This document shows, one piece after another, positions 33,738 to 37,467 of a DNA stretch of 50,710 bases. The position numbers and the translations under genes were made by a program. The DNA is from a virus (lineage: Duplodnaviria > Heunggongvirae > Uroviricota > Caudoviricetes > Ackermannviridae). The DNA is taken from IMG/VR virus record IMGVR_UViG_2974616520_000001, positions 113,328 through 164,037 of that record. One strand, written 5' to 3'. The notes under the pieces were generated by a model, which was not told the DNA's origin, did no database searches, and saw only the letters and a list, made by a program, of their open reading frames with translations. Numbering within the stretch: position 1 is the stretch's first letter; every line of letters begins with the position of its first letter.

Positions 33738-33811
33738 TGTTTCCAGGCAAGCGAGCCTGGCCCAACGAGAGAAGGGCTGTGAAATCGCAGAGTATCAAAG
33801 CGAGGTAGCGC

Positions 33812-33961
33812 ATGGTTCTGTTAATCATTGCCCTGCTGCTTATCCTCGTAACTGGCTCCTCATTTACCCTGATGAAAGCCAGTTGGTTCCTCCTCGTGGA
33901 ATCATTCAAAGCGAACGGAACATCTTCGGCTCGTGAGAGCGCAGTACACTGGGTACTGTAG
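33812..33961 (+). CDS. Putative 49-aa hydrophobic membrane peptide (not in the track)
   Basis: GAGGT SD 6-7 nt before ATG; MVLLIIALLLILVTGSSFTLMKASWFLLVESFKANGTSSARESAVHWVL*; downstream of the promoter at 33713. Confidence 0.45.
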   Translation: MVLLIIALLLILVTGSSFTLMKASWFLLVESFKANGTSSARESAVHWVL

Positions 33962-33988
33962 AAGACGAGGAACAGGGTGAATTGTAGC

Positions 33989-34013
33989 TTCAATAAAGAT
34001 TTTGCAGTATAGT
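33989..34013 (+). promoter_or_regulatory. TTCAAT-N13-TATAGT promoter for the ncRNA cluster
   Basis: TTCAATAAAGATTTTGCAGTATAGT. Confidence 0.7.
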
Positions 34014-34157
34014 TAAGTCTCAAGGGGAAAATAGCACAGTGGCGACTCTTAAGGAAGCCAGTATGCCCTAAGCCGGGGAATTGTGTGAATAGGTCAGCAT
34101 CAACCCACTGCCGTCATAAGGGGACGCCCTAGACCGTACGAGATACGAAACATCTCA

Positions 34158-34307
34158 TCTGAATGACCTGTAGCTCAGAAAGTTACCACTGACAAGTGTC
34201 CGCCTGTGGCCAAGGCACGAATCAGGAGAGGAACGAGAGCAACTCGATGGCGAGTCGACACCATCATTGAGAAGGTCGGGGGCTGGTAATCCCTCAGGTC
34301 ATTCAGA
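34158..34307 (+). ncRNA. tRNA-like structured RNA with an expanded D-loop and a 13-bp closing stem
   Basis: TCTGAATGACCTG (34158-70) pairs perfectly with CAGGTCATTCAGA (34295-307). Inside are TAGCTCAG..GAGC (D-stem), an AGGTC variable loop and a degenerate T-arm. Confidence 0.55.
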
Positions 34308-34308
34308 A

Positions 34309-34399
34309 CCCATAATCATGTACAGTTCCAGCGTATGCAATCAGATGAGTGGCCATAATCTGAATGTGACAATGGGCCAAGACTGTACATGATTATGGG
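34309..34399 (+). ncRNA. Structured RNA or inverted repeat with an 18-bp perfect closing stem
   Basis: CCCATAATCATGTACAGT (34309-26) / ACTGTACATGATTATGGG (34382-99); internal TCAGAT/ATCTGA hairpin. Confidence 0.55.
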
Positions 34400-34495
34400 G
34401 ACTGCCAGAACTACAGCCAACGGACTTTCACACCAGGACGCTGCCATGGATCTGGGTAAACTTTCCCCACCAGAAATGATTAAAGTAACGGTTTG

Positions 34496-34520
34496 TTCAA
34501 TAAGTAAAATGCAGTATAGT
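34496..34520 (+). promoter_or_regulatory. TTCAAT-N13-TATAGT promoter upstream of the tmRNA-like RNA
   Basis: TTCAATAAGTAAAATGCAGTATAGT, nearly identical to the 33989 box. Confidence 0.7.
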
Positions 34521-34526
34521 TAGTCA

Positions 34527-34836
34527 CATAGCGGCAACCTGAGTGAGCAGTTCACTCAAATGTTCAGTCAGGTTTTCGTTCTCGTCGTAGCGATTATGCG
34601 GGTTTTTAGAAACAGACCAAAAATATAATCGCAAATGATAATGAGTTCAAAGTAGCAGCCTAACGGCCAATGCGCTTTCTGGGTATGTGTCTGCCCCCAG
34701 TTACCAATCGACCGGAGTGTGTCCCCGACTCTGTATTAAAGAACGGGGAACATAACTGAATGTGTGCTCGAGAGGTTCGATTCCTCTTTGCCTCGGCAAG
34801 TCCAGATGGTGACGGAGAGCATCCAATCAGTTATGT
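34527..34836 (+). ncRNA. tmRNA-like RNA, circularly permuted, with a closed acceptor stem (YrlA-like tRNA-mimic module)
   Basis: Tag-like frame GCA AAT GAT AAT GAG TTC AAA GTA GCA GCC TAA (34631-63) after AAAAATATAATC. H-type pseudoknot at 34713-49. 10-bp helix 34750-59/34827-36 enclosing a T-arm AGAGG-TTCGATT-CCTCT, a TTGC-CTCG-GCAA hairpin and a D-arm TCC-AGATGGTGAC-GGA. The 5' end is estimated from the promoter at 34496. Confidence 0.7.
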
Positions 34837-35066
34837 CTGGCACACCGGGTATAACGATGACTTGTCACATTTTTGCAGATTTAGAACACAGGCAGTGTCC
34901 TGTAAATGAACTGAAGCCCTAAGAAGTGGATGTTCCAGAGCTTGGCATCTCTGTTATCGAAGCTGCTTTGGATTGAAGTGAGAAATACATCATAGACAAT
35001 TTAAACCTGCTTATGATCGGATTTTAAAGGCCACTTCAGTACACGTCATCCCCACGTTACGGGGAA

Positions 35067-35162
35067 CACAACTGAGAGGCTCCTGGTAAGAGTCGAAGGG
35101 TAAGGCGCATCGTGTAGATGGAAGCGGGTTCAACTCCTGCTATCAGTGGCCTCTCAGTTGTG
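35067..35162 (+). ncRNA. Minimal tRNA mimic inside a 14-bp closing stem
   Basis: CACAACTGAGAGGC/GCCTCTCAGTTGTG. Core has a CTGGTA/TATCAG acceptor-like stem, a D-like arm, a 4-bp/5-nt stunted anticodon arm and a T-arm GCGGG-TTCAACT-CCTGC. Confidence 0.6.
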
Positions 35163-35685
35163 GTGAAGTAGTAATTCAACAGCGGACATCGGGGTGTCGG
35201 AACGTTCACACCGCCTTCAGCTGCAGCCACAACAGTCGTGATCAAAGGAGAGCGCTCCAAAGCGTGAGAGCGTTGAAGTGCCGGTTACAGCTCCGGTGAG
35301 GCGGGAGAAGTATCCTGGGGATTAATACCAGGTGTTCGGAGACCCAACGAAAAGACTACACCACCATCACGACAACTCAACCTGGTCATTGCGACTATCA
35401 ATCGCTCACAGAGGTGACAGGGTTGTTACAAGCCTCGTTTGGTCCGAACGTCAGAGGACAAGTAGAGGGGAAATGAATCCCATTGTGGTCTTAGTACCCT
35501 CCGCGAACTGAGTTTGTATCTGGTTGTCATCGTCCTTTCATCGGTCTGATCAACTGATTTGGGATAAGCCAAAAGACCATGCGCGGGGTCGGCGTTGACA
35601 ACACAAATATGAATTTGTTCGGCAGGGAGTTAACTTCCTGGATGGGTGCTGACTGTGTCAACCCTGTCGAACATCTTAAACAAAT

Positions 35686-35831
35686 GCTGGTCGATTATAA
35701 GTGACGATTCGATGGAACCAATAACACCCCTGCGGCGGCAGAAAGGATGTTGGGAAAGTCGGATAACAACGAAGGCAATCGTGGGTGGGATGGCCTCCCC
35801 CTTCTCGGTTCGAACCCGAGGGCCAGTACCA
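35686..35831 (+). ncRNA. Enlarged (146-nt) tRNA-like RNA ending in an encoded CCA
   Basis: GCTGGTC (35686-92) pairs with GGCCAGT followed by ACCA; perfect T-arm CTCGG-TTCGAAC-CCGAG; interior has several hairpins and no canonical anticodon arm. Confidence 0.55.
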
Positions 35832-35834
35832 AAG

Positions 35835-35910
35835 TTCGTGATAGCTCAGTTGGTAGAGCAGCCTCCTTTTAAGAGGCAGGTCACTGGTTCAAGTCCAGTT
35901 CACGGCACCA
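35835..35910 (+). tRNA. trnK: tRNA-Lys (anticodon UUU)
   Basis: 76 nt; TAGCTCAGTTGGTAGAGC D-arm, GCCTC-CTTTTAA-GAGGC anticodon arm, ACTGG-TTCAAGT-CCAGT T-arm, encoded CCA; 1:72 mismatch. Confidence 0.95.
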
Positions 35911-35964
35911 ATAATGTGGTATGTGGTGAGTCCTGATAATAATAGTTGCCTGTTGTAATTATCC

Positions 35965-36000
35965 AGCCCCGATACAAGGAATTGTGCGGGGCTTCTTTTT
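35965..36000 (+). terminator. Terminator closing the tRNA/ncRNA cluster
   Basis: GCCCCG...CGGGGC followed by TTCTTTTT. Confidence 0.7.
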
Positions 36001-36090
36001 GCTCCTCGTTCTGAACTATCCCTCCCAGATTCTCCTTGGGTATTGAGCCGCCCCGGTATACAATACCACGAAATACACAGGAGATTCGTC

Positions 36091-37467
36091 ATGTCCGACT
36101 TCACAAATAAAGTAATACAGAAACTTGATGATAACATTGAGTGGTTGAACAAACAAACCCGCATGGGGGCGGAAGGGGGCTACCCAGTTCAACCTTTGGC
36201 AACGCCTGACCAGCTGCGTCTTCTAAACCAGACTGTACAACGTCTGAACGGCTTACCGCAGAAGACCATCTTCCCTCTCCAGACTCTCGACCGCACCAAG
36301 ATGAAGTGGGACGACTACCTGTACACCTTTACGCCGTGTGAGCTGGTAGAGAACCCGGCCACCCAGCAGAAGACCTGGTTCAAGCGTGAGGACTACTTCG
36401 CCCCGCTCTCCAACTACGAGAACGGCCAGCAGGGTATCAACGGCTCCAAACTCCGTCAGGCCATCTGGCTCCTACAGCAGCATATCCTGGCAGGCGGCTC
36501 CCCTGATATCGTTCATGGTACTGTCATGGGTTCGCCTCAGTCACCGATGGCAACGGCTGTCTCGCGCCACTTCGGCGGCAAGACCACTACAGTCCTGGGT
36601 GCTACCAAGCCGTCAACCTGTATGAAGGCTGGTATGGTTGAGATGAGTGCCTGGTTCGGTAGCGAATTCAACTTCGTCGGCTCTGGCTACAATACTGTCA
36701 TTCAGCCACGCTGTAAGCTGCTCCTGGAAGGCACGAAGCCGGATGCGTATTACCTGGAGTACGGTATCACCCTGGATCACACAAAGCATGCCTCAGCGCG
36801 TCTGGCAGCGTTCCATGCCCTGGGTGGATACCAGGTACAGAACATCCCAGATCATATCACCGATCTGATTATCCCGGCTGGCTCATGTAACAGCTGTACC
36901 AGTATCTTTACTGGCCTGGCCATGTATCCAAAGCCTAACATCAAGAATATCTGGCTTGTTGGTATTGGGCCGAACCGCCTCCGCTTCATTGAGGAGCGCC
37001 TGGACATCATTGGTAAGGAGCTGGGGCTTCCTCACATCCGTGCGTGGACTCGTGATTACCGCGACAATCCAGGCTTTGGGAAGGACGCACCTGCACCGAA
37101 GGCCAAGAACCTGCTAGACATCATGAAAGCGGGCCGCCAGACTGGTAAAACAGAGATGGCCCAGGCTGTTATCGATTCGGCTAAACCGCGCTTCACTGTC
37201 CACCATTGGGACCTGCATTCCACCAACTGGGTGCGCTACAATGATCTCATGGATTATCAGTGGGGTGATATTGAGCTGCATCCACGCTATGAAGGGAAGG
37301 TGATGCGCTTTGTACAGGAACGTGCGCCTGAGCTTCTGAATGAGAATACCCTGTTCTGGATCGTGGGCAGCAAGCCATACATCGAGCCGATGAAGAAGAA
37401 CTGCCCTGAGCTGGGTGATATCCCAACGGAAGTCGAGGTTAACGCTTTCAACCCGGTTAAAAAGTAA
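36091..37467 (+). CDS. PLP-dependent enzyme of the thymidine hypermodification pathway (ViI gp226-like)
   Basis: FKREDYFAPL...INGSKLRQ (PLP lysine), SPQSPMA and IIPAGSCNS fit the fold-type II PLP family seen with hmU-modifying genes. Likely start MSDF at 36091 with CAGGAG SD. Confidence 0.8.
   Translation: MSDFTNKVIQKLDDNIEWLNKQTRMGAEGGYPVQPLATPDQLRLLNQTVQRLNGLPQKTIFPLQTLDRTKMKWDDYLYTFTPCELVENPATQQKTWFKREDYFAPLSNYENGQQGINGSKLRQAIWLLQQHILAGGSPDIVHGTVMGSPQSPMATAVSRHFGGKTTTVLGATKPSTCMKAGMVEMSAWFGSEFNFVGSGYNTVIQPRCKLLLEGTKPDAYYLEYGITLDHTKHASARLAAFHALGGYQVQNIPDHITDLIIPAGSCNSCTSIFTGLAMYPKPNIKNIWLVGIGPNRLRFIEERLDIIGKELGLPHIRAWTRDYRDNPGFGKDAPAPKAKNLLDIMKAGRQTGKTEMAQAVIDSAKPRFTVHHWDLHSTNWVRYNDLMDYQWGDIELHPRYEGKVMRFVQERAPELLNENTLFWIVGSKPYIEPMKKNCPELGDIPTEVEVNAFNPVKK

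Follow-up and report, generated by a model that had tools for sequence, protein, structure and literature searches.

Sequence comparison lends good support to a large, unannotated family of phage RNAs which resemble the message half of transfer-messenger RNA (tmRNA) and have no tRNA half; nucleotides 34530-34749 of the stretch analyzed here appear to encode one of its members. The stretch, called the window throughout, measures 50,710 nt and corresponds to bases 113328-164037 of a 164,037-base Ackermannviridae phage record (IMGVR_UViG_2974616520_000001). The window RNA features a block complementary to the host tmRNA, a tmRNA-type resume context, a 10-codon tag frame, two pseudoknots, and a closing helix holding a variable cassette. 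Resume context, 10-codon tag, a hairpin at the stop codon, both pseudoknots and the host-complementary block appear to be kept across the family, a view equally well supported. A pattern scan of IMG/VR identified >120 loci matching the conserved pattern, and in 106 of them, from phages or prophages, such a tag frame is present. None of these 106 gave a tmRNA call by ARAGORN, and 89 of 107 loci have no canonical T-arm in the interval from -700 to +400 nt around the resume codon, suggesting that these RNAs are tmRNA message halves without tRNA halves, or 'headless' tmRNAs.

The resume context (..AAAAAUAUAAUC) and the tag frame lie at 34612-34663 on the plus strand, as judged by sequence reading, an Rfam match and the frames of the family. 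The frame runs from GCA to GCC TAA (34631-34663; codons at 34631-34660, stop at 34661-34663), is preceded by AAAAATATAATC, and specifies the peptide ANDNEFKVAA. A resume context followed by a short tag with a hydrophobic end and a stop codon, the arrangement looked for in one-piece tmRNAs, was found at 34619-34663. The stop codon falls in the loop of a small hairpin, GCC-UAAC-GGC (34658-34667, plus strand), which resembles helix 5 of tmRNA. In the alignment, where pairs were not formally counted and register shifts occur, relatives form this hairpin by GCU/AGC or GGC/GCC variants. Frame and hairpin had both been described in an earlier interpretation of the window made from its letters alone (the sequence-only reading), and both were found where it had placed them.

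Family frames are conserved as coding frames are. The 33 distinct frames specify 20 peptides, and all feature 10 sense codons and a stop (TAA, TAG or TGA); the +1 and +2 frames are open in 1/33 and 6/33, respectively. At codons 9 (Ala or Val) and 10 (Ala) variation is nearly confined to the third position, the entropy measuring 1.5 bits at third positions of both codons, vs 0-0.2 at first positions. The peptides have a constant AN(D/E) start and a constant (A/V)A end, and the middle residues are freely variable, as in ANDDLMMVAA, ANDDVVLMAA, ANDEQFLAVA and ANEEMYLAVA from IMG/VR loci. Between the window and its closest relatives (Erwinia phage phiEa2809, the 38.9-kb public contig X2 and the plant-metagenome contig X3) the tag changes only by AAT>AAC and GAT>GAC, both synonymous. 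Constant length, third-position variation and the rarity of other open frames together suggest the pattern expected of a translated frame.

Two pseudoknots follow the tag. Pairs were counted in an alignment of 43 non-redundant members, 10 of type A, to which the window belongs, and 33 of type B. The first pseudoknot (34679-34712, plus strand), overlooked in the sequence-only reading, is made by CUGGG (34679-34683) pairing with CCCAG (34696-34700), and by the loop residues GUC (34689-34691) pairing with GAC (34710-34712). In stem 1, pairing is kept in 99-100% of cases, and both-side changes are seen at 3-4 of the 5 pairs. Stem 2 is weak in the window and measures 4 bp in relatives; it is 100% paired in the 33 type-B members, with changes on both sides at 2/4 pairs. 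The second pseudoknot (34713-34749, plus strand) is the H-type structure which the sequence-only reading had described, made by CGGAGT (34713-34718) and ACTCTG (34728-34733), and by TCCCCG (34722-34727) and CGGGGA (34744-34749). All 10 type-A members keep its stem 1 fully paired, and this stem covaries (both-side changes at 3/6 pairs); its stem 2 is mostly invariant. Partners slid by 1-2 columns, used as controls, are 17-69% paired overall, and 20-55% paired for stem 1 of the second pseudoknot. Compensatory changes, which the sequence-only reading had proposed to look for, were thus found in both structures. Pseudoknots flanking the tag, a tmRNA feature, are represented by these two, both 3' of the tag; no equivalent of pseudoknot 1 was found 5' of the tag in the window RNA. 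Resume context, 10-codon tag and covarying pseudoknots support the view that the RNA derives from tmRNA.

Members of the family are widespread. In blastn searches with 34480-34900 as query, 427 of 50,697 phage records match 34561-34761 at 70-86% identity. Matching phages include Ackermannviridae (ViI, Menlow, phiMAM1), Salmonella phage 7-11, the N4-like Gamaleyavirus phages Bp4, ECBP1 and KP8, and Klebsiella phage Pylas; the record nearest to the window is phiEa2809. Almost none of the matching records is annotated at the element. Complete E. coli genomes also have unannotated copies (at least 186 of the 5,426 searched); in lambdoid prophages the element is flanked by the Q antiterminator and holin genes. 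In P1 (L269:677-778; AF234172 68791-68892) it is found, unannotated, right after the 'dicF-like region' and its terminator, and before tRNA-Asn, with the tag ANDDLMMVAA; as the ban promoters upstream of it are repressed by C1, its expression would require induction. A decaying relic, left by a former phage tmRNA and by tRNA genes and devoid of any present function, could be imagined in a tRNA-gene neighbourhood which holds several tRNA-like fragments and one intact tRNA. Such a relic is made very improbable by the conservation of the element over hundreds of phages of unrelated families, by the compensatory changes in its pseudoknots and by a frame kept intact in every member.

At relaxed thresholds, the best Rfam match of the tag region is tmRNA_permuted (RF04321), at 31.2 bits and E 7e-4, below the gathering score of 47. 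The second permuted model, RF01850, scores 17.7 bits vs a gathering score of 84, the beta_tmRNA match is weak, and the one-piece model RF00023 recognizes only a 7.6-bit T-loop fragment, vs a gathering score of 47, contributed by the T-arm of the cassette. The Rfam search suggested in the sequence-only reading returned a permuted-tmRNA match below gathering, and listed no Y-RNA family at E values up to 10. ARAGORN called no tmRNA in the window region.

The claim that the RNA is unchargeable as encoded holds: it features no free acceptor end and no CCA, and G3-U70 is absent from both candidate stems. A standard one-piece tmRNA, closed by pairing of 34531-34537 with 34788-34794, was considered and discarded, as this pairing includes a C-U mismatch and is not followed by CCA. 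The GCGGCAA residues at 34531-34537 pair instead with 34573-34579, and are kept in phiEa2809, whose cassette offers no partner to them. The sequence-only reading had named a CCA-ended tmRNA made by that pairing as the outcome which would speak against it; since GCGGCAA is engaged in a 5' hairpin, the outcome is unsupported. A hidden acceptor piece elsewhere was rejected as well. Canonical T-arms are found in the whole genome only at 34771, 35124, 35804 and 35883, and none complements the 5' end of the RNA; the only other CCA-ended T-arm element in the 164-kb genome, at 35686-35832, shows no complementarity to it either. When GTTTTCGT was searched for in alphaproteobacterial two-piece tmRNAs, a contig pattern scan gave chance matches only, and ARAGORN called 0 tmRNAs in 37 candidates.

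The 5' hairpin (34530-34580, plus strand; fold z -3.49), in which the RNA 5' end GCGGCAACCUGA pairs with UCAGGUUUUCGU, takes the place which the tRNA-like domain (TLD) has in permuted tmRNA genes. The upstream acceptor piece of permuted tmRNAs is not found there, the slot being filled by this 51-nt hairpin, which has no T-arm. Similarly, in the alignment of relatives the outer helix of RF04321, normally placed around a ~95-nt TLD, encloses a plain stem-loop of 34-48 nt. Sequences of the window and of X3 diverge exactly before 34530, marking this position as a module boundary. In X3 a tRNA-like 3' end (T-loop, 3' acceptor strand and CCA) is located five bases 5' of the tag RNA, and replaces the promoter.

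The most conserved stretch 5' of the tag, a block at 34570-34611 (plus strand) overlooked in the sequence-only reading, is complementary to nt ~65-106 of ssrA, as judged by RNAduplex and by family comparison. Within ssrA, the complementarity extends from the 3' strand of pseudoknot 1, over the AAAAAAUAGUC linker and the resume codon, up to codon 5 of the tag. The host target is represented here by E. coli ssrA 61-112, and its invariance was evaluated in 20 Enterobacterales ssrA genes. The target ATAGTCGCAAACGACGAAAACTACGC is the same in all these species, except for one base in one genome; overall the 20 genes are 87-96% identical to that of E. coli. The window block pairs with ssrA 61-112 at -34.7 kcal/mol, vs -15.6 +/- 3.2 for shuffles (z -6.0). 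Values range from -30.7 to -41.1 kcal/mol in 76/76 unique family sequences, vs -15.4 +/- 3.1 for shuffled blocks (mean z -7.2, from -4 to -12.6). The blocks may also pair with their own tag regions, at -14 to -22 kcal/mol, and ssrA is the better partner in 76/76. The best site within the entire ssrA is nt 65-106. Pairing of the phage RNA with the host tmRNA would be expected from these figures.

The best explanation for these features, put forward tentatively and somewhat short of being probable, is that the headless tmRNA docks on the host tmRNA and hands over its tag template, the cassette being dispensable. Transcription would start at the promoter at 34493-34522, within a ~1.5-kb array of RNA modules ending behind tRNA-Lys, and the tag RNA would be excised at the long helices. 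The complementary block would pair with the host tmRNA, masking the host tag template. The docked RNA would offer its own resume codon ~20 nt beyond the duplex, at the pseudoknot-1 side, near the position of the host codon, which is found 11 nt beyond pseudoknot 1. Host Ala-tmRNA and SmpB would supply the tRNA function, and rescued proteins would receive ANDNEFKVAA, not ANDENYALAA; the cassette would not be needed at any of these steps. The ENY part of the host tag is read by the SspB adaptor, and the phage tag is devoid of it. Hand-over is favoured because the tag frame behaves as coding, and trans-translation is the only known way to translate a frame which has no start codon. Whether enterobacterial phages of many families all encode such a trans-acting replacement template, by which the host rescue machinery would append a phage-specified tag, is a broader proposition, and a more doubtful one.

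Pure inhibition without translation is the main rival to hand-over, and is regarded as rather unlikely. The RNA would act as an antisense inhibitor or sponge, pairing with the host tmRNA, maybe promoting its cleavage by RNase III, and shutting down trans-translation; the tag would never be translated, and would be kept as a tmRNA mimic binding a factor such as S1, or as a folding aid. Such a sponge would rely on the same complementarity as hand-over, is in keeping with the lack of a tRNA-like domain in most members, and is the simplest mechanism, with a synthetic precedent in anti-ssrA or anti-tmRNA oligonucleotides, which block tagging. It leaves unexplained why 10 codons are constant while the identity of the stop varies, why Ala and Val codons vary at the third position, and why the middle of the peptide is free and the AN(D/E) start and (A/V)A end are fixed. 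'Anti-tmRNA' and 'inhibits trans-translation' are terms met in passages of in-vitro assay papers (PMC3384345, PMC7038980).

Several points weigh against hand-over. In a gapped complementarity alignment against the whole E. coli ssrA, the z value is 0.3 for the window and 2.8-3.4 for prophage forms. The duplex between block and ssrA is present in the lowest-energy dimer when whole molecules are cofolded, but the net gain (-9.3 kcal/mol) is no better than that obtained with a shuffled block (-7.5 +/- 3.0). The 52-nt ssrA target was picked after the place of the best match had been seen, and, being invariant, it offers no host-matched covariation. The pairing needs the opening of host pseudoknot 1. 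No transcript record was found over 34480-34900 of the window, nor for any relative, and no precedent is known for a template given in trans to tmRNA.

Downstream of the last pseudoknot, a closing helix (34750-34759 paired with 34827-34836; 34750-34836, plus strand) holds the cassette at 34759-34826, as deduced from folding and contig comparison. The helix measures 10 bp, and is prolonged by a 6-bp extension (GUGCUC, 34764-34769, with GAGCAU, 34817-34822). Enclosed are a T-arm (34770-34788; 6 bp, loop UUCGAUU), a closed stub UUGC-CUCG-GCAA (34788-34799; 3 bp in the lowest-energy fold, 4 at most), and a D-like hairpin (34800-34813; 3 bp, with a GG-containing loop of 8 nt). The lowest-energy fold of 34748-34838 is a four-way junction made by these same elements (-34.4 kcal/mol, z -3.84), and 0/200 shuffles folded as well. 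A helix enclosing T-arm, closed acceptor-like stem and D-arm had been proposed in the sequence-only reading; order, coordinates and fold are as it described them, but the acceptor-like stem is shorter.

The cassette is exchangeable. Over 34480-34758 and 34827-34900, only 10 differences (substitutions and one inserted base) separate the window from phiEa2809, all of them between 34593 and 34695. Between these identical arms, phiEa2809 has a cassette interior of unrelated sequence, which folds without a T-arm. Among the public contigs compared over 34400-35000 (X2, X3, X15 and X19), the window cassette is unchanged in X2 and X3, X15 has the phiEa2809 type, and X19 a third sequence; divergence always occurs exactly at 34758/59 and 34826/27. 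The cassette alone found no DNA homologue in the 50,697 phage records. The stretch 34759-34826 appears therefore to be one of at least three interchangeable cassettes inserted in a conserved helix after the last pseudoknot, as these comparisons support well. Prophage members feature a conserved bulged helix (5' arm ACAACAGGUAAGAGC and matching 3' arm) around interiors of at least 23 different kinds. A T-arm is present in normal order in some and comes first, as in the window, in others, and one interior has a candidate hammerhead ribozyme core; no Rfam family was found for the helix cassettes of the prophage members. The candidate hammerhead core (CUGACGA, stem II, GAAAC, stem III, GUC) was noticed in one helix-bounded cassette of two prophage loci (L115:1884-1908, minus strand, and L063:7938-7962, minus strand).

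These exchanges bear on the central idea of the sequence-only reading, a circularly permuted tmRNA designed as a single unit of tag frame and tRNA mimic. As the module is swapped in phiEa2809, X15 and X19, has no homologue in the phage records, and a nearby T-arm is missing from most relatives (89/107), the idea is unsupported. The cassette is probably an accessory, acting as a processing or stability element, or a separate tRNA-elbow mimic. The function assigned to it in that reading, i.e. a decoy in which tag and closed tRNA mimic make a single unchargeable RNA, titrating SmpB or occupying stalled ribosomes, is improbable. T-arm and GG-containing D-like loop could indeed form a tRNA elbow, the module comes directly after the last pseudoknot, like the TLD in tmRNA, and X2 and X3 carry an identical cassette. 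On the other hand, the tag RNA stays where the cassette is replaced, most family members have no T-arm, the stub measures just 3-4 bp, and beyond the 7.6-bit T-loop fragment the module matches no YrlA or tmRNA model.

A two-piece chargeable tmRNA could arise by cutting the CUCG loop, for example by RNase P, and adding CCA, the tag being joined to the T-arm side. The topology is that of a valid tmRNA circle, and the YrlA RNA of M. smegmatis is cleaved by RNase P and gains CCA in vivo (PMC4201824). The same study ties cleavage to a 7-bp acceptor stem, against 3-4 bp in the window, where moreover G3-U70 and a discriminator-CCA are absent; the arrangement is not kept in relatives, and this alternative is hardly likely at all.

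The order of T-arm, closed acceptor-like stem and D-arm on a helix, seen in the lowest-energy fold of 34748-34838, is a YrlA feature, and accounts for the part of the sequence-only reading which called the module a YrlA-type mimic. Other YrlA features were not found. No TROVE/Ro gene (PF05731) was matched in the complete phage genome, in searches in which positive controls were matched. The GNCGAAN0-1G motif is absent from the closing helix, and occurs in 33901-36100 only at 35092, in a different cassette. No Y-RNA family was found at E values up to 10 over 33800-36600 among 4227 Rfam families, a set in which the presence of the YrlA model is unconfirmed. Given these results and the 3-4 bp stem, the module looks like YrlA but seems not to be a member of the class, and its opening and charging are unlikely. 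From the description of the RNA as a permuted tmRNA fused to a YrlA mimic, tmRNA origin, uncharged state and order of elements are thus retained; the single designed unit and YrlA membership are not.

The different cassette just mentioned resides at 35050-35165. It features a 15-bp closing helix starting at 35067 (fold z -4.93), is preceded by a CCCC/GGGG hairpin repeating the 3' half of the 34722-34749 pseudoknot, and contains a normal-order T-arm (35124-35140) in addition to the only YrlA-type motif of the region, GNCGAAG, at 35092.

The tag RNA is found in an ORF-poor stretch of ~2 kb (34000-36040), in which ARAGORN, and Rfam at gathering thresholds, recognize only tRNA-Lys (35835-35910). 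A promoter-like motif precedes the RNA (34493-34522, plus strand; -35 TTGTTC at 34493-34498, 17-nt spacer, -10 TATAGT at 34516-34521; sequence reading). The TTCAATAA..TGCAGTATAGTTA motif occurs twice (33982 and 34493), vs 0.01 expected, a near-identical copy spanning 33982-34015, and in ViI and phiMAM1 the homologous RNA is preceded by TTGTCA-N16/17-TATAGT. The promoter noticed in the sequence-only reading is thus present, repeated and matched in relatives, but a consensus promoter scanner did not list the 34493-34522 site. A strong terminator hairpin occurs only at about 35965-35996. With two promoter-like motifs and a single distal terminator, the array, tRNA-Lys included, may be transcribed as one or two long precursors.

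A 19-bp perfect inverted repeat around ~53 nt (34309-34399, fold z -7.0) is likely an RNase III-type processing hairpin. Long perfect helices, such as this one and the 10 + 6 bp helix at the cassette, would suit processing of the array by RNase III. No RtcB gene was found in the window phage. A tRNA-like element of ~147 nt (35686-35832) is located directly 5' of tRNA-Lys. It features a 7-bp acceptor stem, GCUGGUC/GGCCAGU (two G-U pairs), a T-arm CUCGG-UUCGAAC-CCGAG, a discriminator A and an encoded CCA; it is called by neither ARAGORN nor Rfam, and its overall fold is no better than those of shuffles (z -0.98). ViI and 7-11 also have elements of this kind, ending in CCA, downstream of the tag RNA.

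tmRNA has been regarded as a self-contained molecule, and phage copies have been assumed to be complete. In the family described here, conservation concerns the message half only, and extends over hundreds of enterobacterial phages, among them P1 and ViI-like, N4-like and lambdoid phages; standard annotation (ARAGORN, Rfam, PGAP) has missed the family completely. If hand-over is true, phages would routinely manipulate ribosome rescue and protein tagging by RNA-RNA interactions, adding a new layer to host takeover. The fate of rescued proteins would be rewired during infection, in what would be the first re-programming of tmRNA by a second RNA.

Literature searches found no published description of a phage tmRNA form devoid of the tRNA part and complementary to the host; several known RNAs share some of its features. 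The window RNA resembles the coding piece of two-piece tmRNAs (RF04321, RF01850; Caulobacter type, and phage examples such as OM43 phage Melnitz, PMC9004378), among which its best Rfam match is found. Shared are the resume context (..AUAAAU/AUAAUC GCA), an AND(N/D)...(V/A)A tag, the stop codon in a small hairpin, the post-tag pseudoknots, and an outer helix closing the region 5' of the resume codon. The phage RNA differs in having no acceptor piece, a plain hairpin filling its slot, in scoring below gathering and in escaping ARAGORN. Moreover, it carries a block complementary to the one-piece tmRNA of the host, its hosts being Enterobacterales, which use one-piece tmRNAs.

Like one-piece SsrA (RF00023), the window RNA has a message-like domain with a tag, and a post-tag pseudoknot similar to E. 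coli PK2; in the window phage a T-arm follows the last pseudoknot. Unlike one-piece tmRNA, it has no 5' acceptor strand, 7-bp acceptor stem, CCA or G3-U70, and the T-arm is part of an exchangeable cassette. YrlA RNAs are defined by a module of T-arm, closed acceptor-like stem and D-arm on a Ro-binding helix, by the GNCGAAN0-1G motif and by a neighbouring Ro60/Rsr gene (Chen et al. 2014, PMC4201824). Opening of the closed acceptor by RNase P, with CCA addition in vivo, was shown only for M. smegmatis, whose stem measures 7 bp (PMC4201824). The cassette shares with YrlA RNAs the order of T-arm, closed acceptor-like stem-loop and D-arm on a long helix; in contrast, the phage has no Ro60/Rsr gene, the helix no GNCGAAN0-1G, the acceptor-like stem is far shorter, and no covariance model is matched.

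tmRNAs detectable by ARAGORN are found in 2.3% of phage genomes (PMC9004378), and have been described in mycobacteriophages also (PMC4131195). Mycobacteriophage DS6A encodes a tmRNA made by the TLD only, for which interference with trans-translation has been proposed (PMC4131195). DS6A and the headless family both feature a phage-borne fragment of tmRNA, but in DS6A this is the tRNA-like half without the message half, and the headless family represents the reverse case.

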